Positions 2,155 to 32,058 of a DNA stretch of 35,692 nucleotides are shown here, piece by piece. The first letter of the stretch is position 1. Each line of letters opens with the position of its first letter. The translations under genes were made by a program, and so were the position numbers. Source of the DNA: Burkholderiales bacterium (GTDB lineage Bacteria; Pseudomonadota; Gammaproteobacteria; Burkholderiales; Ga0077523); NCBI GenBank assembly GCA_044370825.1, contig JBILUV010000003.1, positions 1-35,692 on the forward strand, read 5' to 3'. The notes beneath the pieces are model-generated. The model ran no database searches, was not told the origin of the DNA, and saw only the letters and a list, made by a program, of their open reading frames with translations.

Positions 2155-3708
2155 TCAGAGATTGCGTGCGCCCATCTGCTCGGCGATGTACTCCGCCTGA
2201 CGGATGGCCAGCGCCACGATGGTCAGCGTCGGGTTCTCCGCCGCACTCGTGGTGAACTGGCTGCCGTCGGAGATGAACAGGTTCGCGATGTCGTGCGTCT
2301 GGCCGAAGCCGTTGCACACGCCCGAGCTCGCGTCGCTGCTCTGGCGGCAGGTGCCGAGGTTATGGGTGGAGGAGAAGGGCATGCGCGTGTAGACCTTGCG
2401 CGCGCCCACCGACTCATACAGCGCAGTGGCCATCTTCCAGGCGTGCTCGCGCATCGCCTTGTCGTTCGGATGGTCCTCCTTGTGCACGTGGGCCACCGGC
2501 ATGCCGTGCTGATCCTTCCTGGTCTTGCTCAGCGTGACGCGGTTGGTCTCCTGCGGCATGTCCTCGCCCACGATCCAGAGGCCAGCCGCGTGACGGTAGG
2601 CCTCGATGTCGCGGGCGTATTCACGGCCCCAGCCACCCGGCTTGGCGTAGGCCGGGTAGCCCGGCATGCCGAATGCCGGCAGGGTCTCGAGCTCGTAGCC
2701 GGCGACGAAGCCACGCTTCGGATTGAAGAAGGACTCATCGCGGATGATGCCCGCCATCTGGGTGCCGCGGTGCAGGTTCACCTCGCCCGGCATGACCGCG
2801 TAGACCGCACCGGTGAGGTGGGGCATGTAGTTGCGGCCGACCTGACCGGAGGAGTTGGCCAGACCATCGGGGAACATGCTGGAAGCGGAGTTGAGCAGCA
2901 GACGCGGCGACTCGATGGAGTTGCCAGCCACGCACACGATACGCGCCTTCTGCTCGTGCATCGCGCCGCTGGCATCGGAGTACACCACGCCGGTGGCGCG
3001 GCCACTGGCGTCGTGGTTGATGCGGATCACCATGGACTCGGGCCGCAGCTCGTAGTTGCCGGTCGCCTCCGCCCTGGGCACCTCGGTGTAGAGCGTGGAC
3101 CACTTGGCACCGATGGCGCAGCCGCTCATGCAGAAACCGATCTGGCGGCAGGCGGGCCGGCCATCACGGACCTGCGAGTTGATGGCCATGTTGCCAGTGT
3201 GGTATTCCTTGTACCCGAGCTTTTTGGCGCCAGCGGCGAGTACCTTGTAGTTGCTGCTGCCCGGCAGGCGCGGAATGCCGTGCGTGCCGGTGACGCCCAT
3301 CTTGTCCTCGGCGCGATGGTAGTAGGACTCCAGGTCCTCGTAGGAGATGGGCCAGTCGTCGAGGTTGGCACCCGGCAGACGACCATAGGTGGACAGGGCC
3401 TTGAACTCGTGCGGCTGGAAGCGCAGGGACGCGCCGGCCCAGTGCACCGTGGTGCCACCGACGGTCTTGCAGATCCAGGCCGGGAAGTTGGGATCGAGAT
3501 CGCCGGAGCCTTCGCGCGTGTCGAGCCAGGAGATCTTGGCGAACATCTCCCCGCCGTTGGTGATGTCGCCCAGCGTCAGACGCTTGCCCGCCTCCAGACA
3601 GACCACCTTGATGCCCTTCTGGGCGAGTTCGTTGCCCAGCGTTCCACCGCCAGCACCGGAACCGATGATGACAACGACGGAATCGTCGTTCAGATCGAAT
3701 TTGGCCAT
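2155..3708 (-). CDS. GMC-family FAD oxidoreductase, catalytic subunit of a gluconate/sugar dehydrogenase-like enzyme
   Basis: VIIGSGAGGG FAD motif, VGGTTVHW, CRQIGFCMSGC Cys cluster, HNLGTCR, ENPTLTIVALA; RBS GAGGA before ATG 3708. Confidence 0.9.
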   Translation of the reverse strand: MAKFDLNDDSVVVIIGSGAGGGTLGNELAQKGIKVVCLEAGKRLTLGDITNGGEMFAKISWLDTREGSGDLDPNFPAWICKTVGGTTVHWAGASLRFQPHEFKALSTYGRLPGANLDDWPISYEDLESYYHRAEDKMGVTGTHGIPRLPGSSNYKVLAAGAKKLGYKEYHTGNMAINSQVRDGRPACRQIGFCMSGCAIGAKWSTLYTEVPRAEATGNYELRPESMVIRINHDASGRATGVVYSDASGAMHEQKARIVCVAGNSIESPRLLLNSASSMFPDGLANSSGQVGRNYMPHLTGAVYAVMPGEVNLHRGTQMAGIIRDESFFNPKRGFVAGYELETLPAFGMPGYPAYAKPGGWGREYARDIEAYRHAAGLWIVGEDMPQETNRVTLSKTRKDQHGMPVAHVHKEDHPNDKAMREHAWKMATALYESVGARKVYTRMPFSSTHNLGTCRQSSDASSGVCNGFGQTHDIANLFISDGSQFTTSAAENPTLTIVALAIRQAEYIAEQMGARNL

Positions 3709-22249: not shown

Positions 22250-23431
22250 TCATGCGAGCTCGATCGCCAGGGCCGTGGCCTCGCCGCCGCCGATGCACAG
22301 CCTGGCGACGCCGCGCTTCAGGCCGCGCCGGCGCAGCGCCCCGATCAGGGTGACGACGATGCGGGCGCCCGAGGCGCCGATGGGGTGCCCGAGCGCACAC
22401 GCGCCGCCGTGCACGTTGACCTTGTCGTGCGGCAGCTCCAGCTCGCGCATCGCCGCCATGGCGACCACCGCGAAGGCCTCGTTGATCTCGTAGAGATCCA
22501 CCGATTCGGCCGACCAGCCAGTGCGGCGCAGCAGCTTCGACATGGCCCCCACCGGCGCCGTCGTGAACCAGCTTGGCTCCTGGGCGTGTGTGCTGTGGCC
22601 GACGATGGTCGCGAGCGGACGCAGGCCGCGTCGCGCGGCTTCCGAGGCCCGCATCATCAGCACTGCCGCCGCACCGTCGGAGATGGAGCTGGAGTTTGCC
22701 GCCGTGACCGTGCCGTCCTTGCGGAACGCCGGCTTGAGCTGGGGGATCTTCTCGAGGTTGGCCTTGGCCGGCTGCTCGTCCTGATCCACCACGCGCTCGC
22801 CCTTCCCCGAGCGCACCGTCACCGGCGCGATCTCCCAGGCGAAGCCGCCATCGCTGCCGGCCAGCCGTGCCCGCTCCAGGGAAGCGATGGCGAACGCATC
22901 CTGCGCCTCCCGGGTGAAATCGAACTTCTGCGCGCAGTCCTCGGCAAAGGTACCCATCAGCCGGCCGCGGTCGTAGGCGTCCTCCAGGCCGTCCAGAAAC
23001 AGGTGGTCCAGCACCTGCTGGTGGCCCATGCGATAGCCGGCGCGCGCCTTGGGCAGCAGGTAGGGCGCATTGGACATGCTCTCCATGCCACCGGCGACCA
23101 TGACGTCGTTGCTGCCGGCCAGCAGCAGGTCGTGGACGAACATGATGGCCTTCATGCCGGAGCCGCACATCTTGTTCACCGTGGTACATCCGGCGGACAG
23201 CGGCAGGCCCGCGCCCAGGCTCGCCTGGCGGGCCGGCGCCTGTCCCTGACCGGCGGACAGCACGCACCCCATCACCACCTCCTCGACGTCCGCGGCGGGT
23301 ACGCCGGAACGCTCGACCGCGGCCCGTATGGCCACAGCTCCGAGTTCGGCGGCGGCGAGATCCTTGAAGTCTCCCTGCATGCCGCCCATCGGCGTGCGGG
23401 CGGCGGAAACTATGACTACCGGGTCGGTCAT
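22250..23431 (-). CDS. Acetyl-CoA C-acyltransferase (thiolase)
   Basis: NKMCGSGMKA, NSSSISDGAAA, EINEAFA, GHPIGASG, LCIGGG; RBS AGGAG. Confidence 0.95.
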   Translation of the reverse strand: MTDPVVIVSAARTPMGGMQGDFKDLAAAELGAVAIRAAVERSGVPAADVEEVVMGCVLSAGQGQAPARQASLGAGLPLSAGCTTVNKMCGSGMKAIMFVHDLLLAGSNDVMVAGGMESMSNAPYLLPKARAGYRMGHQQVLDHLFLDGLEDAYDRGRLMGTFAEDCAQKFDFTREAQDAFAIASLERARLAGSDGGFAWEIAPVTVRSGKGERVVDQDEQPAKANLEKIPQLKPAFRKDGTVTAANSSSISDGAAAVLMMRASEAARRGLRPLATIVGHSTHAQEPSWFTTAPVGAMSKLLRRTGWSAESVDLYEINEAFAVVAMAAMRELELPHDKVNVHGGACALGHPIGASGARIVVTLIGALRRRGLKRGVARLCIGGGEATALAIELA

Positions 23432-23537
23432 GATGCGCACTCCTGAAGAAACGCGCCGGCGCTGGGCCGGCGGGAAATGATTCTCTCATGGGCACCGCGA
23501 CGGACCGGGTGCGGGCGCAGGGCGGGGGCCACGGGCT

Positions 23538-25307
23538 TCACGCCCCCCCGCCCGCGGGAAAGCGGGCGGCAAAGCGTGCCGCCGCGGGGTACGGATAGAC
23601 GTCCTCGATGAAGCCCTCCTCGATGCGCTGCTTGGTCTGGTTCCAGAACCCCACGTCGAGCAGATCCTCGTGGTGCTCCAGGAAGGCCTGGCGCACCACC
23701 TTGCCGGACAGCAGGAAAGGGGCGAACTCCTCGGGGAAGATGTCGTTCTGGCCGACCGGGTACCAGGGCTCCGCGGCCATCTCGTCCTCCGGCGTGCGAG
23801 GCGGCGGGATGCGCCGGAAGTTGCACTCGGTCATGTAGACGATCTCGTCGTAGTCGTAGAACACCACCCGCCCGCCGCGGGTCACACCGAAGTTCTTGAA
23901 CAGCATGTCGCCGGGGAAGATGTTGACCGAGCACAGCTCCTTGATCGCATTGCCGTAGTCCACCACCGCCGCCCGGGCCTGGTCCTCAGCGGCCTCGTCG
24001 AGGAAGAGGTTGAGCGGCTGCATGCGACGTTCGATGTACAGGTGCTTCACGACGATGGTGTCGTCGCCCTCCTCGACCAGGGAGGGTGCCTCGCGCCGCA
24101 GCTCGTCGAGCAGGGCGTCGGTGAAGCGCGATCGCGGGAAGGCCACGTCGGCATACTCGAGCGTATCCGCCATGCGGCCGATGCGGTCGTGGCGCTTCAC
24201 CAGCATGTACTTTTCCTTGACGATCTCGTGCGTCACCTCCTTGGTGGGCGAGATGCGGTCGCGGATGACCTTGAACACGTAGGGATACGACGGCAGCGTG
24301 AACACGATCATCACCAGACCGCGGATGCCGGGCGCCAGGATGAAGTCGTCGCTGGAGTGCTTCAGGTGATGGAGGAAGTCACGGAAGAACAGCGTCTTGC
24401 CGTGCTTCTGCAGGCCCAGCGAGGTGTAGAGCTCGGCCTTGGGCTTGCGCGGCAGCATGTGGGCAAGGAAATCCACATACGCCGAGGGCACCTCCATGTC
24501 GACCATGAAGTACGCGCGGCTGAAGGCGAACAGCGGGGCGATCTGTGACGGCCCGAGCAGCAGCGCGTCGAGCATCAGCCCGCCCGACCCGTCGTGAACG
24601 ATGGGAATGGCGAAGGGGAGCTCGATCTCGCCGTTGACCAGCACGCCGATGAGGTAGCAGCGCTTGTTGCGGAAGAACAGCGAGGACAGCACACGGATCT
24701 GGTGGTTGGCCTCGACCCGGAAGGGGCGTCCGAGCGCGGTGCGCGCCACCTTCAGGACGCAGGCGAGATCCCGGTTCGCTTGGCAGAACGGCAGCGTGAG
24801 CCCGGTGTCGGCGAGGATGCGTCGCAGCACCGCCCTGAGGCCATCCTTGCCCGGGTAGTAGCTGCGGTAGGACGGGGTGTCGGCGTCGAGGTGTTCGGTG
24901 GACACCGCCGGCCTGACGAAGATGTAGTCGTTGTGGTAGTAAGCCCGGTGCAGCAGCTTGCAGCTCACCGAGTTGAAGAAGGTCTCGGCGAGTTCGGGCT
25001 GCATGTGGTCGGTGAGCAGACCGACATAGTGGAGCTTGATGTGTGTCCAGAGGGCCTCGGGCAGGTGCTCTGCGTCGAACTCCCGGATCAGCCGCTCCGC
25101 CGACTCCATGACGCGCTGGTCGTAGAAGGCGATGCGTTCGGCGTGGGCGCGATGCACCGCCGGCCAGTCCGCCGACTCGAAGCGCACCCGCGCGTCGCGC
25201 GAGATCTCGCGGAAGATGCGGTAGTGACGATCGAAACCCTCGAGCAGGGCGAGGGCGATCCGCGCAGCCTGGCCGGGCGGATCGCTGACGGTGTCCTCGG
25301 CGTTCAT
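23538..25307 (-). CDS. aceK: Isocitrate dehydrogenase kinase/phosphatase
   Basis: ELAETFFNSV, APGIRGLVM.VFTLPS, HDRIGRMAD, NIFPGDMLFKNFGVTR.GRVVFYDYDEI. Confidence 0.97.
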   Translation of the reverse strand: MNAEDTVSDPPGQAARIALALLEGFDRHYRIFREISRDARVRFESADWPAVHRAHAERIAFYDQRVMESAERLIREFDAEHLPEALWTHIKLHYVGLLTDHMQPELAETFFNSVSCKLLHRAYYHNDYIFVRPAVSTEHLDADTPSYRSYYPGKDGLRAVLRRILADTGLTLPFCQANRDLACVLKVARTALGRPFRVEANHQIRVLSSLFFRNKRCYLIGVLVNGEIELPFAIPIVHDGSGGLMLDALLLGPSQIAPLFAFSRAYFMVDMEVPSAYVDFLAHMLPRKPKAELYTSLGLQKHGKTLFFRDFLHHLKHSSDDFILAPGIRGLVMIVFTLPSYPYVFKVIRDRISPTKEVTHEIVKEKYMLVKRHDRIGRMADTLEYADVAFPRSRFTDALLDELRREAPSLVEEGDDTIVVKHLYIERRMQPLNLFLDEAAEDQARAAVVDYGNAIKELCSVNIFPGDMLFKNFGVTRGGRVVFYDYDEIVYMTECNFRRIPPPRTPEDEMAAEPWYPVGQNDIFPEEFAPFLLSGKVVRQAFLEHHEDLLDVGFWNQTKQRIEEGFIEDVYPYPAAARFAARFPAGGGA

Positions 25308-25335
25308 GGGTCCGTCGTCGGCGCGGGGAGGCGGG

Positions 25336-26544
25336 TCAGACGGTGTCGGCGAACAGTTCGCGGCCGATCAGCCAGCGGCGGATCTCCGAGGTGCCGGCGC
25401 CGATCTCGTAGAGCTTGGCGTCGCGCCACAGGCGCCCGGTCGGATAGTCGTTGATGTAGCCGTTGCCCCCCAGGCATTGAATGGCCTCGCCCGCCATCCA
25501 GGTTGCCTTCTCGGCGGAGTACAGGATGGCACCGGCTGCGTCCTTGCGCAGCGCCCGTACCGCCTCGGGGTGGTGAGCGTGGTCGCAGGCCCGTCCCACC
25601 GCATACGCGTAGGCGCGGCAGGCCATCATGGTCGAATACATGTCCGCCAGCTTGCCCTGCATCAGCTGGAACTCGCCGATCGCCTGGCCGAACTGGCTGC
25701 GCTCGTGCAGGTAGGGCAGGACCACGTCCATGCAGGCCGCCATGATGCCCAGCGGCCCGCCGGACAGCACGGCGCGCTCGAAGTCGAGGCCGCTCATCAG
25801 CACGTTCACGCCGCGGCCGACCTCGCCCAGCACGTTCTCCTCGGGCACCTCGCAGTCCTGGAACACGAGTTCACAGGTGTTGGAGCCGCGCATGCCGAGC
25901 TTGTCCAGCTTCTGGGCGGTGGAGAAGCCCTTGAATCCCTTCTCGATCAGGAAGGCGGTGATGCCGCGCGGCCCGGCGGCGGGGTCGGTCTTGGCATAGA
26001 CCACCAGCACGTCGGCGTCCGGACCGTTGGTGATCCACATCTTGTTGCCGTTGAGGACATAACGGTCGCCGCGCCGGTCGGCTCGGAGCCGCATGGAGAC
26101 GACGTCGGACCCAGCCCCGGGTTCGCTCATGGCGAGGGCACCGACACTGCTGCCGTCCACCAGTCCGGGAAGGTAACGGGCGCGCTGCGCATCGTTGCCG
26201 TTGCGGCGGATCTGGTTCACACAGAGGTTGGAGTGTGCCCCGTAGGACAGTCCGACCGAGGCGCTGGCGCGGCTGATCTCCTCCATGGCGACGATGTGGG
26301 CCAGGTAGCCCATGGCGGTGCCGCCGTACTCCTCCCCAACGGTGATGCCGAGCAGGCCGAGGTCGCCCATGCGGCGCCAGAGGTCCATGGGAAACTGGTT
26401 GCTGCTGTCGATCTCCGCCGCCCGGGGCGCGATCTCGGCGGCGGCGAAGTCCTGCACGCTGGAGCGCAGCATCTCCAGGGTCTCGCCGAGCCCGAAGTCG
26501 AGGCTGGGAAAGCGCTGCAGTGACACGGGGGAGGCACGATCCAT
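25336..26544 (-). CDS. ivd: Isovaleryl-CoA dehydrogenase (LiuA)
   Basis: [67 protein letters not shown]. Confidence 0.96.
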
Positions 26545-26585
26545 GGAGCTCTCCTGAAGCAGGGGACACGGAAATGGGACCACGA

Positions 26586-27152: not shown

Positions 27153-28214
27153 ATGTCGCAAACCTCCCCCGGGCAGCCCGCCGCGCCGGCCGCCTCCGAC
27201 GACTTGTCCTTCCCCCACCCCGTCGTGCCCGAGCCCGGACAGTGGCTGGAAATTCACCCGGACGTGCGCTGGATCCGCATGCCCCTGCCCTTCGCGCTGA
27301 ATCACATCAACCTGTGGCTGCTCCGCGGTCCCCGGGGCTGGACCATCGTCGACACCGGCTACAACAGCAGCGCCACCCGCCAGGCGTGGGAACAACTGCT
27401 GCCGCATCACCCGGAACTCGAGCAGGTGCTGGTCACCCACTACCACCCCGACCACCTTGGCCAGGCCGGCTGGTTCTCCCGCGAATTCGGGCTTCCGATA
27501 CTCATGAGCGAAGCCGAGTACCTCTCCGGCCACGCCGCCTACGAGGGAACATCGGGGTTCGGACCCGACGGGCTGGCCGCCCTCTACCGCTGCCACGGCC
27601 TGGACGAGGAACGCATCGCCGCCGTCACCGCGCGCCCCACCGGCTTCCGCAACGCCATCACGCCGCCGCCCACCGCATTCCGCCGCATCCGCCACGGCGA
27701 CGTGCTGCGCCTGGGCCATCACGAATGGCGGGTCATGGTGGGCCACGGCCATGCACCCGAGCACGTCTCGTTGTATTGCGAGACCCTGGGGCTGCTGATC
27801 TCCGGCGACATGCTGCTGCCCAAGATCAGCACCAACACCAGCGTCCCCTCGACGCAACCGGAGACCGATCCGGTCGGGCAGTTCCTGTCGTCCATCCGCG
27901 AGTACCTGGCCCTCCCGGCCGATACCCTCGTGCTCCCATCCCACGGCCTGCCGTTCCGCGGCATCGCGTCGCGCGTGCAGGCGCTCGAGAACCACCACCG
28001 CGACCGGCTCGACGAAGTGATGGGCGCCTGCGCCGAGCCCAGGACGGCGGCAGACATCATGCCGGTGCTGTTCCGCCGCGAGCTCGACATCCACCAGCTG
28101 TTCTTCGCCATGGGCGAGGCCATCGCGCATCTCAATCACCTGTTCCAGCAGGGCCGCGTCACCCGCACCACCGGACCCGATGGCGTGCATCGTTTCCAGG
28201 CATCCCCCACCTGA
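27153..28214 (+). CDS. MBL-fold metallo-hydrolase
   Basis: RMPLPFALNHIN.WLL, VDTG, THYHPDH, GHAPEH, SGDMLLP.IS, LVLPSHG.PF. Confidence 0.92.
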   Translation: MSQTSPGQPAAPAASDDLSFPHPVVPEPGQWLEIHPDVRWIRMPLPFALNHINLWLLRGPRGWTIVDTGYNSSATRQAWEQLLPHHPELEQVLVTHYHPDHLGQAGWFSREFGLPILMSEAEYLSGHAAYEGTSGFGPDGLAALYRCHGLDEERIAAVTARPTGFRNAITPPPTAFRRIRHGDVLRLGHHEWRVMVGHGHAPEHVSLYCETLGLLISGDMLLPKISTNTSVPSTQPETDPVGQFLSSIREYLALPADTLVLPSHGLPFRGIASRVQALENHHRDRLDEVMGACAEPRTAADIMPVLFRRELDIHQLFFAMGEAIAHLNHLFQQGRVTRTTGPDGVHRFQASPT

Positions 28215-28230
28215 CCGCAGGAGGACTCCC

Positions 28231-30852
28231 ATGGCTGAGCCGCAACCCGCGAAGGCGATCGACCCCCAGGAACTGCAGCAGGCCTTGGCGCGCATCGCCG
28301 AGCGCTCGGCGACCGTGGCGGCAAAGTTCCTCGAGAGCCAGCCCCACGTGGACATGGCCCGCAACATCGGTGACCTGGGCATCGACAAGGCCTTCGCCGA
28401 CCTCGGTGCCCGGCTGCTGTCCGACCCGGCGCGGCTGGCCCAGCTGCAGATGCGCGCCTGGGAAGACTTCCTCAAGCTGTGGACCGCCACGCTCACCCGG
28501 GTCCAGGGCGGGACGGCGCCCGCCGTGAAGGAACCCGCCCGCGGCGACAACCGCTTCCGCAGCGAGCTGTGGCAGAACAACTTCGTGTTCGACTATATCA
28601 AGCAGTCCTACCTGATCGCCGCCGAGCACATCCAGCGTGTTGTGGCCGACACCGCAGGGCTCGACGAAGCCAGTGCCCGCAAGGTGAAGTTCTTCACCCG
28701 GCAATACATCGACGCCCTGTCGCCGACCAATTTCGCCCTCACCAACCCGGACGTGCTGAAGGCCACCGCCGACTCGGGCGGCCGCAACCTGCTCAACGGG
28801 CTGAACAACCTGCTCACCGACCTCGAACGCGGGCGCGGCAAGCTGTCCATCCGCATGACCGACTACGACGCCTTCCGTCTCGGCGACAACGTCGCCGCCT
28901 CACCGGGCAAGGTGGTGTTCCAGAACGACCTCATGCAGCTGCTGCAGTACACGCCCACCACCGCCGAGGTGCATCGGGCACCCCTGGTGATCTGCCCGCC
29001 GTGGATCAACAAGTACTACATCCTCGACCTGCGGCCGAGCAATTCCTTCATCAGGTGGGCGGTGGACCAGGGCCACACGGTATTCGTCATCTCCTGGGTC
29101 AACCCGGACGAGACCCTGACCCACAAGACCTTTGACGATTACCTCTTCGAAGGCCCGCTCGCAGCGATGGAGGCGGCACGCCAGGCCACCGGCGAGGCCT
29201 CGGTGAACCTCATCGGCTACTGCCTCGGCGGCACGTTGACGGCCTGCCTGATGGCGTGGCTGGAAGCCCGCGGCCAGGCCGACAGGGTGAAGAGCGTGAC
29301 CTACTTCACGACCATGATCGACTTCACCGACCCCGGCGAACTCGGTGTGTTCGTCGACGAGCCCACGGTGGATCGCCTGGAGAAGCGCATGGCCGCCCGC
29401 GGCTACCTCGAGGGCGAGGAGATGGCCGGCACCTTCAACCTGCTGCGCGACAACGACCTGATATGGTCATTCGTGGTCAACAACTACCTCATGGGCAAGG
29501 AGCCCTTCCCGTTCGACCTGCTGTACTGGAACTCCGACGCCACGCGCATGCCGGCGAAGATGCACACCTTCTACCTGCGCAACATGTACATCCGCAACCT
29601 GCTGACGCGACATGGCGAGCTGCAGGTGGGCGGGGAGCCGATGGACCTCGCGACCGTGACCACGCCGACCTACTTCATCTCGACGATGGAGGATCACATC
29701 GCGCCATGGCGCTCCACCTACGCCGGGGCGCGCCTGTTCTCCGGCCCCGTGCGCTTCGTGCTCGGCGGCTCTGGACACATCGCGGGTATCGTCAACCCGC
29801 CGGCGGCCAACAAGTACTGCTTCTGGACCAACGAGGCGATGCCGGAGGCGGCGGCGGACTGGCTCACGAGCGCCGACCGGCACGAGGGGTCCTGGTGGAA
29901 CGACTGGAACACCTGGATCTCGGCCTTCTCCGGCGGCAAGGTGCCCGCGAGGACGCCTGGCGACCGCGCCCTGCGCGTGATAGAGGACGCCCCGGGCGCG
30001 TTCGCGAAGGTGCGGCTGGACGGCGCCGGCAAGGCGGCGACAGAGGGCGCGCGGAACACCACCCCGCCGGCAGCGACCCCTGCCCCGGCGCCGACATCCG
30101 TCGCATCATCGACGATGCCGGCGGATGACGCACCCGCGCCCCGAAAGACAGCGGCAGCCGCGCGGACAGCGCCGTCGGACGCGGTGTCGACCGCCCCAGC
30201 CGCACCCGCCGGGTCCGCGGCAGACAAGCCGACCGCCCGACGCAGTGCCAGGCGCAAGCCCGCGGCGACGGTCTCTGCGCCGGCGCCCGCCCGTGCACCG
30301 AGCGGCGGCGGGACGACGACGGCAGCCCGCGTCACGCCCCCGAGCCCGGCGACCACGCCGCGCGTCCCGGCACGCCCGAAAGCCGGTGCGACCGGGTCGG
30401 TCGCCAAGGCCGCACCAGCCCCCGCCAGACCCAAGCCCGCACCGCAAGCCGCCAGCGGCGCCACCGCTGCGATCACGCGCAAGCCTCGAGCCGCGGGCGC
30501 CGCCGCGGCGACGGCGCCCGCAACGACGGGATCGACCGCCGGGACGAAACCCGTTACCGCCCGGCCTGCCACGACCAGGACCCCGCCGGCTGCATCACCG
30601 ACCATCGGCAAATCGGCCGTGAAACCAGTCAGCGCGCCTGGCAGAACGCGGTCGAAACCCGCCGCTGCGCCGGGCAGGAGCCCTGCGCCCTCCGCCACCC
30701 CGCCCTCCGGCGCCGCAGGCATGATCAGCGAGCTGTTCCGACAGCAGGGCAAGCCGGGTAGCCCGCGCCCCGGCCAGACGCCCCTGGCGCCCACGCCTGT
30801 CCCGGCGAAAGGCAAAGCCAAGACCAAGGCCGGCAAGGCGAAGCGCAAGTGA
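28231..30852 (+). CDS. phaC: Class I polyhydroxyalkanoate synthase with ~276-aa low-complexity C-terminal extension
   Basis: DNRF, SPTNF..TNP, PPWINKYYILDL, lipase box GYCLGG, FDLLYWNSD, EDHIAPW, SGHIAGIVNPP, GSWW.DW..W, EDAPG; RBS AGGAGG before ATG 28231; frame open to TGA at 30850-30852. Confidence 0.95.
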   Translation: MAEPQPAKAIDPQELQQALARIAERSATVAAKFLESQPHVDMARNIGDLGIDKAFADLGARLLSDPARLAQLQMRAWEDFLKLWTATLTRVQGGTAPAVKEPARGDNRFRSELWQNNFVFDYIKQSYLIAAEHIQRVVADTAGLDEASARKVKFFTRQYIDALSPTNFALTNPDVLKATADSGGRNLLNGLNNLLTDLERGRGKLSIRMTDYDAFRLGDNVAASPGKVVFQNDLMQLLQYTPTTAEVHRAPLVICPPWINKYYILDLRPSNSFIRWAVDQGHTVFVISWVNPDETLTHKTFDDYLFEGPLAAMEAARQATGEASVNLIGYCLGGTLTACLMAWLEARGQADRVKSVTYFTTMIDFTDPGELGVFVDEPTVDRLEKRMAARGYLEGEEMAGTFNLLRDNDLIWSFVVNNYLMGKEPFPFDLLYWNSDATRMPAKMHTFYLRNMYIRNLLTRHGELQVGGEPMDLATVTTPTYFISTMEDHIAPWRSTYAGARLFSGPVRFVLGGSGHIAGIVNPPAANKYCFWTNEAMPEAAADWLTSADRHEGSWWNDWNTWISAFSGGKVPARTPGDRALRVIEDAPGAFAKVRLDGAGKAATEGARNTTPPAATPAPAPTSVASSTMPADDAPAPRKTAAAARTAPSDAVSTAPAAPAGSAADKPTARRSARRKPAATVSAPAPARAPSGGGTTTAARVTPPSPATTPRVPARPKAGATGSVAKAAPAPARPKPAPQAASGATAAITRKPRAAGAAAATAPATTGSTAGTKPVTARPATTRTPPAASPTIGKSAVKPVSAPGRTRSKPAAAPGRSPAPSATPPSGAAGMISELFRQQGKPGSPRPGQTPLAPTPVPAKGKAKTKAGKAKRK

Positions 30853-30915
30853 CCCGCGGCCGGCGGGTGGAGCGCTGACGTCGTCTGCATCCGGCCCAGG
30901 GGTAGCCCGGCATCG

Positions 30916-32058
30916 ATGATCGACCCGAGGCTGATCGCGCTTTGCCTGGGCAATGTGGTCGTCGGTACGGGCACCATGGTCGTGCCGGGCACTCTGCCTG
31001 CCCTGACCCGGGGGTTGGGGATCGACCTCCCCGCCGGCGGGCGGCTGATCGCCGCCTTCGCGGCAACAGTGTGCGTCATGACGCCGCTTCTCGCCGCGTG
31101 GCTGAGCCGGATGGACCGCCGGGTCCTGCTCACTGCCGCCCTACTGGTGTTCGCCGCCGGTCATGCCGCCTCGGCGCTGGCCGCCTCCTACGAGTCGATG
31201 CTTGCGACGCGCGTGGCCTCGGCCCTGGTGGCCGGGCTGTTCACCTCGCAGGCAGCCGGCGTCACGCGACTGCTGGTGCCACCCGAGAGGCAGGGCGGTG
31301 CCGTCGCCTTCGTGTTCCTCGGCTGGGGCATCGCCGCCGTAGCCGGAACACCCCTGACCGCCTGGATGGCCCAGACCGTCGGCTGGCGGGCCGCCTTCTG
31401 GCTGGTGGCCGTCGCCGCCGCCCTGCAGGCCGCCTGGGTGTGGCGCGGGCTACCGGCACGGCTGCACACGCCCGCCATCGACAGCGCGGCGTGGCGGGCT
31501 CTGGTCCGTGACCGGGCCCTGCCCGCCCTGGTGGCGCTGACGGCCATCCATTCCTGGGCGCAGTTCATCCTGTTCGCCTACCTCACGCCAGTGCTCGAGC
31601 AACGCACCGGCGCCGGCACCACCCTGGTGGCGCTCGCCCTGGGTCTGTTCGGTCTGTGCGGCATCGCCGGCAACGTCGTCGCCATGCGTCTGATGGACCG
31701 CATCAGTCCGCGACACGCGACCACGCTCGCCATCGGCTGCATGTTTGCGGGACAGGTGGTCATCGCCGCCGGGGGATTCGGCGCGCTGCCGATGCTGCTT
31801 GGCCTGTCTCTCTTGGGCCTGGGCTGCTTCTCCGCCAACAGCGCACAGCAGGCCCGCCTGCTGGCGGCGGCACCGGCACTGGCCTCGGTGTCGATCGCGC
31901 TGAATTCATCGGCCATCTACCTGGGGCAGGCAGCCGGCGCCGAGACCGGCGCCTGGATCATCGGCGTCGCAGGGATGGACTGGCTGCCGCGCGCAGGCCT
32001 GCCGGTGTTCGTCGTTGCGCTGGCTCTCAGTCAACGCGCGGGACGTGCTCACCGCTGA
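30916..32058 (+). CDS. MFS transporter (DHA1/AraJ-like)
   Basis: About 12 hydrophobic segments, SRMDRRVLL loop, GWRAAFW, ALNSSAIYLGQA.G. Confidence 0.88.
   Translation: MIDPRLIALCLGNVVVGTGTMVVPGTLPALTRGLGIDLPAGGRLIAAFAATVCVMTPLLAAWLSRMDRRVLLTAALLVFAAGHAASALAASYESMLATRVASALVAGLFTSQAAGVTRLLVPPERQGGAVAFVFLGWGIAAVAGTPLTAWMAQTVGWRAAFWLVAVAAALQAAWVWRGLPARLHTPAIDSAAWRALVRDRALPALVALTAIHSWAQFILFAYLTPVLEQRTGAGTTLVALALGLFGLCGIAGNVVAMRLMDRISPRHATTLAIGCMFAGQVVIAAGGFGALPMLLGLSLLGLGCFSANSAQQARLLAAAPALASVSIALNSSAIYLGQAAGAETGAWIIGVAGMDWLPRAGLPVFVVALALSQRAGRAHR

Follow-up and report, generated by a model that had tools for sequence, protein, structure and literature searches.

A class I polyhydroxyalkanoate synthase with a long polycationic C-terminal tail and a conserved short motif in a genus of the Burkholderiales

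Results

The phaC gene and its synthase core

We analysed a stretch of 35,692 nucleotides, called the window below, from an uncultured lake bacterium of the Burkholderiales (assembly GCA_044370825.1, contig JBILUV010000003.1, positions 1 to 35,692; the assembly has 3.75 Mb in 433 contigs and is 88% complete). It contains a phaC gene whose product is a polyhydroxyalkanoate (PHA) synthase that continues, past the end of the recognisable enzyme, into a long basic tail (Table 1). The open frame extends from 28180 to 30852 on the forward strand, and an in-frame upstream ATG at 28180 would give an alternative product of 890 amino acids (aa). The ATG at 28231 is favoured as the start since M1 is nearly invariant there in an alignment (A1) of 54 chosen sequences, made up of 44 proteins of at least 672 aa from the database matches listed and 10 shorter ones.

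Table 1. Features of the tailed phaC gene and of its product
Feature	Residues	Position in the window	Strand	Basis
phaC coding sequence, 873 codons + stop		28231..30852	+	
Class I PHA synthase core, complete (PhaC_N + alpha/beta hydrolase)	1-597	28231..30021	+	
PhaC (lipase-like) box GYCLGG, catalytic Cys331	329-334	29215..29232	+	54-sequence alignment
Disordered polycationic C-terminal tail, 276 aa	598-873	30022..30849	+	composition, AlphaFold2 (AF2)
Proximal Ala/Pro/Thr/Ser linker, nearly uncharged (first tail quarter, net +1)	~598-666	30022..30228	+	
Only predicted helix of the distal tail, AAGMISELFRQQG	828-840	30712..30750	+	AF2 DSSP
Conserved motif ISELFRQQ	832-839	30724..30747	+	19 genus sequences
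Terminal Lys/Arg cluster KGKAKTKAGKAKRK	860-873	30808..30849	+	

The core, which terminates in ...EDAPGAFAKVRLD, matched the class I PHA synthase model TIGR01838 over residues 64-593 with 761.1 bits (cut-off 622.65) and contained the Pfam domains PF07167 (PhaC_N, at 7.8e-72) and PF00561 (at 1.6e-16). The solved full-length PHA synthase 9knj_A (596 aa) aligned with residues 42-604, which places the end of the complete canonical enzyme near residue 597-600. Residues G329, Y330, C331, G333 and G334 were invariant in the 54 sequences, as were D488 and H516; following the assignment made for C. necator PhaC1, we take Cys331, Asp488 and His516 to be the catalytic triad. The core was modelled confidently by AF2. 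Judged by its sequence, the tailed protein is a genuine class I PHA synthase with intact catalytic residues.

Composition and reality of the tail

The tail contains 76 Ala, 49 Pro, 35 Thr, 23 Gly, 22 Arg, 22 Ser and 20 Lys, with 42 basic residues (K+R) for 6 acidic ones (D+E) and no Cys, Trp, His or Tyr, and its last residues are ...AKGKAKTKAGKAKRK. Its net charge is +36 and its isoelectric point (pI) is 12.0, versus 5.53 for the core. An earlier note on this DNA had given the frame, the tail length, the counts of K+R, D+E and C/W/H/Y and the terminal sequence, all of which hold. It had also held that this composition looked selected and unlike that of a random GC-rich read-through, and our results bear it out: when the six frames of the 3.75-Mb assembly were scanned for segments of at least 200 aa holding a 200-aa span free of C/W/H/Y in which Lys numbered 12 or more and D+E no more than 6, the only one of 8123 stop-free segments that qualified was the tail itself, and the tail is genus-wide (see below). 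The larger share of A-ending codons noticed in the tail was likewise found, A occupying 0.138 of the third codon positions there and 0.039 of those in the core; the GC content of third positions was 0.80 in the tail and 0.93 in the core.

The junction between core and tail (30019-30022) was bridged with 0 differences by contigs from three other lake or freshwater runs (X5, 29918-30663; X6, 29978-30559; X3, 29952-30146), which gives the join the read support that the earlier note had wished to see. The junction also lies within a single 169-base contig of the RNA library X18, which has 6 differences and is no proof of transcription; sampled words from the locus were almost entirely missing from the RNA runs X19-X22. 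An origin of the tail from DNA repeats was ruled out, the sole tandem repeat in its DNA being a 7-base unit in 4 copies (score 37). On the opposite strand, positions 29718-31133 hold an open reading frame (ORF) of 471 aa, the usual shadow of GC-rich DNA.

Scans of the tail alone against Pfam and NCBIfam returned 0 families, even at E up to 10; in the same scan, a genuine family member from a related genome reached 85.3 bits. A protein-atlas search with the tail gave no usable feature match, and its structural rows had template modelling (TM) scores of at most 0.22, which are meaningless for a disordered region. A homologue search with residues 560-873 gave only 5 matches, its sensitivity being limited by low complexity. 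The AF2 model, built on the 54-row alignment, gave the tail a per-residue confidence (pLDDT) of 32-41, as the disorder supposed in the earlier note would have it, and showed it as disordered except for the helix at 828-840.

Distribution of the tail among relatives

In the genome collection the family comprises one genus only, with 25 genomes, and an orthologous PhaC with a basic tail and the conserved motif was found in 22 of them. This tally comprises 18 complete ORFs, the window itself, G008, where the tailed phaC is split across two contigs, G010, where two contigs share the gene and one of these carries the entire tail joined to the end of the core, and G022 (locus L017, G022:C4, ~3018-3608), where the core is read in one frame and the part of the tail with the motif in another. 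The frame break in G022 may stem from a frameshift error, or it may be a true mutation that makes the gene a pseudogene; an intact protein of 794 aa that is near-identical to the G022 PhaC is present in the protein collection (P0007). In G004, G006 and G015 (91%, 79% and 86% complete, respectively) the gene is partial or missing on the contigs found, and the part that would encode the tail is lacking from these assemblies.

The 18 complete genus tails are 122-276 aa long, with a pI of 10.5-12.0 and a net charge of +16 to +39, and the longest tail in a database protein reaches 312 aa. The alignment with homologues that the earlier note had proposed thus shows that relatives in the genus keep a basic tail of similar composition. 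The relatives' tails have more Lys and runs of the AKPAKV type, and AAKP occurs in 10 of the 18, in 1-2 copies. Among the best 120 database proteins, 41 are at least 700 aa long, and the first 34 matches (58-94% identity) are all 719-909 aa.

Examination of the best 80 public loci showed that 72 of the 78 PhaCs that could be parsed (L027 and L068 could not) end 0-26 residues past the core end ...APGSYxKxRLD. Three of the six longer-tailed loci are the genus itself, and outside the genus the longer tails measure 106 aa (L024), 72 aa (L025) and 32 aa (L026). Extensions past residue 600 proposed by tblastn in L036, L060, L064, L066, L067, L070, L071 and L088 were rejected as spurious, since they run through stops. 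A minimal basic tip of the form ...RLD-x-Q-K-K-(K/A/S/V/P/E) ends the untailed PhaCs at L056-L058, L060, L062, L064, L077, L080, L082, L083, L085 and L098, which include records labelled Rhodocyclus, Dechloromonas, Azonexus, Sulfurisoma and unclassified Beta-/Pseudomonadota. Such a tip could be the seed from which the longer basic tails grew.

Anatomy and evolution of the tail

The net charge of the successive quarters of the window's tail is +1, +13, +8 and +14, and the first quarter was the least charged, or tied for it, in 16 of the 17 relatives tabulated (range -3 to +7). The predicted helix overlies the conserved motif; the 10-residue block there has a pLDDT of 52, which is low confidence, versus about 35 around it. 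In the 19 genus sequences the consensus is (S/T)-P-A-x-x-I-S-A-(L/I)-F-(R/Q/K)-x-Q, with I and F invariant and S, A and Q present in at least 90%, and this motif is the sole part of the tail with invariant residues. It was found in 38 of the 40 A1 tails of at least 120 aa, always 21-44 aa before the end, and lies 25-46 residues from the end in the genome loci. Every genus tail ends in a K/R cluster such as KRK, RRK, KKKRK or RGRR. Read from the core outwards, the extension has four parts: the near-neutral linker, a long disordered stretch over which positive charge is spread evenly, the motif with its predicted helix, and the Lys/Arg cluster.

Comparison with the closest ortholog, that of G008, gave a ratio of nonsynonymous to synonymous substitution rates (dN/dS) of 0.07 for the core (597 codons), 0.66 for residues 598-667 (70 codons) and 0.47 for residues 681-873 (191 codons), the last of these stretches also differing by one in-frame indel of 2 aa. 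These ratios fit the relaxed constraint that had been suggested from the A-ending codons. On these counts, in which the codon numbers are small, constraint on the tail is relaxed and is not absent. The alignments point to a tail whose sequence and length drift while its basic disordered composition stays, that is, to a C-terminal extension that the lineage has added and that is maintained by selection.

PhaCs of sister lineages (P0076, P0094, P0100, P0101 and L025) have tails of 72-145 aa in which (S/T)-A-I-D-L-L-S, or an L-D-L-L-A/Q-D-L-L-A variant, precedes the basic end. Because A-I-D-L-L-S stands before the basic end in these lineages, a hydrophobic mini-helix with a basic end arose before the genus did, and it was within the genus that the long cationic stretch was elaborated.

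A profile of the motif and terminal end (A3, 19 sequences) gave only 2 matches in 1.84 billion representatives, so that, at the sensitivity of the profile, the motif module is common to no other protein family. One match, P0123 (171 aa), is identical over its last ~100 residues to a G022-type tail end and has an unrelated N-terminus; its likely source is a chimeric contig or an ORF that was called wrongly. The second was rejected as repeat-derived junk. Two other readings of the motif were considered and set aside. It fits poorly with the beta-clamp-binding motif, which is QLxLF, and a membrane-targeting amphipathic helix is unlikely with three hydrophobic residues only.

Resemblance to the C-terminal peptide of FtsZ

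In FtsZ a globular core is followed by a long disordered linker, then by a short, conserved peptide that forms a helix and lastly by a short basic end, and the tailed PhaC has the same layout; the likeness is one of pattern only, and we claim no homology. The FtsZ of the same genome ends in ...LEIPAFLRKQAD. Comparison of its peptide IPAFLRKQ with ISELFRQQ of the tail (ISALFRAQ in relatives) showed that I, R and Q are common to both, with A in the relatives, plus an adjacent hydrophobic pair. The pattern I[PS][AE][FLIM][FLIM][RK].Q, which was written after both sequences had been seen, occurred 2 times, in FtsZ and in the tail, in the 1.36 million residues of the likely coding frames of the genome. 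The two peptides nevertheless differ, having 4 identities in 8 positions with F and L swapped and P replaced by S, and the PhaC motif lies 21-46 aa from the end. Since the sister lineages lack R-x-Q, the FtsZ-like part of the motif is not ancestral.

The FtsZ-binding domain of ZipA is encoded in 25 of the 25 genus genomes. A complex prediction with this domain (A2, 25 rows) and PhaC residues 815-873 (A1) scored 0.00, which counts neither way, and a literature search, with most subscription journals and supplements outside its scope, found no link between PhaC and partners of FtsZ. We consider it very unlikely that the motif mimics the FtsZ C-terminal peptide and docks the synthase and its granule on ZipA, FtsA or MinC. 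If it did, granules would be placed or shared out at the division site, or abundant free synthase would compete with FtsZ, by which cell division would be coupled to carbon storage; the basic stretch would add affinity for the nucleoid or the membrane.

The zipA gene of the genome (C218:4749-5744, -) has a frame that stays open for ~60 codons beyond the point where the C-terminal domain of ZipA usually ends; this frame overlaps the start region of ligA (C218:2869-5247, -), and ZipA is also cut by the contig end.

Other granule proteins and H1-like proteins in the genome

The genome encodes a phasin (TIGR01841/Phasin_2 match on contig C92) and a second, untailed PhaC of 570 aa, whose TIGR01838 score of 507 bits falls short of the 622.65 cut-off. 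A classic-looking cluster at C414:4278-8300 (locus L195) holds the gene of this untailed PhaC, an acetoacetyl-CoA reductase gene (phaB) and phaR, and the tailed phaC, which encodes the bona fide class I enzyme of the two, sits apart from both the phasin gene and this cluster. This arrangement suggests a division of labour between the two synthases, or heterodimers of them. The earlier note had seen in the tailed synthase a one-protein system for granule initiation and segregation; this is too strong, since a phasin, PhaR, the second PhaC and other Lys/Ala/Pro-rich proteins are present, PhaB being encoded as well.

That note had also named a genome search for phaM and phaF as a check. PF05597, the PhaF-type phasin family, has no match in the tailed protein or in the 88%-complete genome. 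PhaM was sought by composition scans only, with no search by a PhaM profile, and these scans of the genome (4 and 3 matches) gave nothing with a PhaM-like layout. A DNA pattern encoding PAKKAAP had matches in 12 of 61 genomes of the order; the ORFs that were translated proved to be H1-like proteins of the NF038053 type, SWIB-domain fusions, a single-stranded DNA-binding protein and others, none of them PhaM-like.

A histone-H1-like protein of the Burkholderiales kind is split over the contig ends C433:1-348 (-) and C343:1-429 (+). It has AKKPAAPAKKAV repeats and ends in ...AAWPFPVAGRPN, and its homologs in related genomes score as NF038053; the repeats in the gene probably stopped the assembler. 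The product of C58:9077-10219 (-) joins an H1-like Lys/Ala/Pro N-terminus to a C-terminal region that resembles SWIB/MDM2 by eye. The closest counterpart found among related genomes, at L104, has C-terminal matches to the NCBIfam models of DNA topoisomerase III and of topoisomerase I/SWI fusions, and similar ORFs recur in L108 and L112. A frame of 419 aa at C378:984-2243 (-) has six repeats of the PSRKAA(V/L) type near its N-terminus, followed by a globular region.

Discussion

A tail that may tether the synthase to the nucleoid

A class I PhaC stays covalently bound to the polymer chain that it makes, so the simplest role for a cationic tail would be to keep the enzyme, and with it the nascent granule, on a polyanion. 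We propose that the polycationic tail binds a polyanionic scaffold electrostatically, above all the DNA of the nucleoid, and that synthase and nascent granules would thereby be anchored there. The tail would then do in cis the job of the separate adaptors PhaM (Cupriavidus), PhaF (Pseudomonas) and PhaH (Caulobacter), with the conserved motif as a putative docking peptide for a partner protein, and the tailed enzyme would operate beside the phasin, PhaR and the untailed second PhaC. By analogy with these adaptors we regard anchoring to nucleoid DNA as plausible, with a probability of about 0.5. Activation of the synthase by its tail, in the manner of PhaM, would be pure analogy.

The points in favour are the presence of the tail in 22 of 25 genomes, the charge kept in all of its versions, the AAKP found in 10 of 18 tails and the lack of a PF05597 match in the genome. 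The DNA-binding parts of PhaM, PhaF and AlgP are basic disordered or H1-like segments, according to the available text of a recent review (PMC13052382). Several results weigh against a nucleoid tether. The window's tail has 0 AAKP and 0 PAKKA, and PAKKA occurs in 0 of the 18 genus tails; no H1-like or other family matched the tail at E up to 10, and its composition is rich in Arg, Thr and Ser rather than a Lys/Ala repeat. The histone-H1-like character that had been ascribed to the tail therefore fails in the strict sense. The genome has its own H1-like protein of the NF038053 type and a phasin, so that other tethers may exist, and what the tail conserves best is a hydrophobic motif rather than charge, an indication of a specific partner protein.

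Other explanations of the tail

The tail might instead form a polyelectrolyte brush or spacer that coats the granule, keeps PhaC soluble, sets granule size and stops fusion as a phasin would, with no tethering, while the motif would touch PhaC or the surface of the polymer through a weak amphipathic contact; we hold this, for the tail and for the motif, to be possible and on balance improbable. Length and sequence that vary freely (122-276 aa) under a kept composition, the relaxed dN/dS, the failure to detect a DNA-binding family in the tail and the uncharged, linker-like first quarter are what a brush would lead one to expect, but the net charge of +16 to +39 that all members have would be superfluous in a plain spacer, as would the invariant I..F motif with the terminal K/R cluster, and a phasin is already encoded in the genome. 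The motif, which alone in the tail has invariant residues, could also carry the function on its own, the disordered region being a leash for a peptide that docks a specific protein, possibly ZipA, FtsA, MinC, the phasin, PhaR, the second PhaC or the PhaC core. The arrangement of core, disordered linker, helix peptide and basic end, like that of FtsZ, agrees with such docking; we find it unlikely all the same, because the FtsZ likeness rests on a pattern written after both sequences were seen, Phe and Leu are swapped and Pro is changed to Ser, the motif stands 21-46 aa from the end and not at it, sister lineages have A-I-D-L-L-S without R-x-Q, and the helix at the motif reaches a pLDDT of only 52 in the AF2 model.

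By the analogy drawn for DNA, the polyanion could be polyphosphate (polyP) or RNA, and binding of polyP would link granules of poly(3-hydroxybutyrate) and polyP. The argument from charge is the same as for DNA, and AlgP, an H1-like protein of Pseudomonas, is a precedent in that its basic tail positions polyP granules (PMC13052382, available text); we think this target quite unlikely. That the tail is a non-functional GC-rich read-through, or an artefact of assembly or annotation, hardly deserves credence. Long open frames are expected in GC-rich DNA, as the 471-aa shadow ORF at 29718-31133 illustrates, and codon usage is less biased in the tail than in the core, but an artefact does not account for a tail that 22 of 25 genomes have, that keeps its motif and that shows in-frame changes only, for the contigs of other runs that bridge the junction, or for 20 Lys codons in DNA of 75-80% GC.

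Comparison with known systems

The idea of a self-tethering PhaC, which the earlier note had put forward, is already in print for PhaC2 of Cobetia and Halomonas (PMC8686332; Christensen et al. 2021). In the available text of that in silico study, PhaC2 has a class I core and an extension of 340-380 aa that is mostly unordered, with a pI of ~10.3 and an acidic core, and occurs genus-wide; its authors speculate that the extension binds DNA and replaces the lacking PhaM as nucleoid anchor. The protein described here is alike in joining a class I core to a long disordered basic extension (276 aa, pI 12.0; core 5.53). It differs in that its host belongs to the Burkholderiales, whereas Cobetia is in the Gammaproteobacteria (Halomonadaceae), and in that its PhaC box is GYCLGG and not SYCIG (PMC8686332, Table 3), so that it is not of the same PhaC2 subclade. 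The Cobetia and Halomonas tails have weak matches to HC2/H1-like domains in the available part of PMC8686332, whereas the window's tail has none, and a conserved terminal motif, present here, is not described for Cobetia PhaC2 in that part. We infer that the tail may have arisen independently of that of Cobetia PhaC2.

PhaM of Cupriavidus necator and PhaF of Pseudomonas putida are adaptors between granule and nucleoid that exist as separate proteins (PMC13052382, available text). The tail resembles them in being a basic, Ala/Pro/Lys-rich disordered C-terminal segment on a granule-bound protein, with a proposed role in holding granules at the nucleoid and sharing them among daughter cells. PhaM and PhaF, however, have N-terminal granule-binding domains of their own, while the tail here is fused to the synthase, and it has no PAKKA or AAKP repeats and no PF05597 match. 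Haloarchaeal PhaC has an extended C-terminus with a helix-hairpin-helix (HHH_5) that is said to be essential for PHA production in the accessible part of 10.1101/693432, and thus also carries a putative nucleic-acid-binding module at the C-terminus of the synthase; there the module is a folded domain on a class III-type archaeal enzyme, whereas here a class I enzyme carries a tail that is disordered. The repeated appearance of basic tails built into PhaC suggests a convergent evolution of self-tethering synthases. A literature search within the same scope as that for FtsZ partners brought up no study in which a basic tail of a PhaC had been put to an experimental test.

The placement and inheritance of storage granules in bacteria are only partly understood, and what sets the spacing of granules was still unknown to a 2025 review, in its available text (PMC13052382). 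With the tether idea itself in print, what is new here is a family-wide case in the Burkholderiales and a conserved motif with a terminal K/R cluster. The lineage offers a test case, with a long tail that is family-wide and an untailed paralog in the same cell, and the motif of eight residues is a mutational handle that separates charge from a docking peptide. For bioplastic engineering, this natural extension shows that a class I PhaC tolerates long C-terminal fusions.

Neighbouring genes

The tailed phaC is flanked by a gene of the metallo-beta-lactamase fold on one side and a major facilitator superfamily (MFS) transporter gene on the other. At 22250-26583 of the window, on the reverse strand and 5 kb upstream of the tailed phaC, genes for a thiolase, AceK (isocitrate dehydrogenase kinase/phosphatase) and an acyl-CoA dehydrogenase lie together, so that genes of acetyl-CoA and of glyoxylate-shunt control are found near the synthase.

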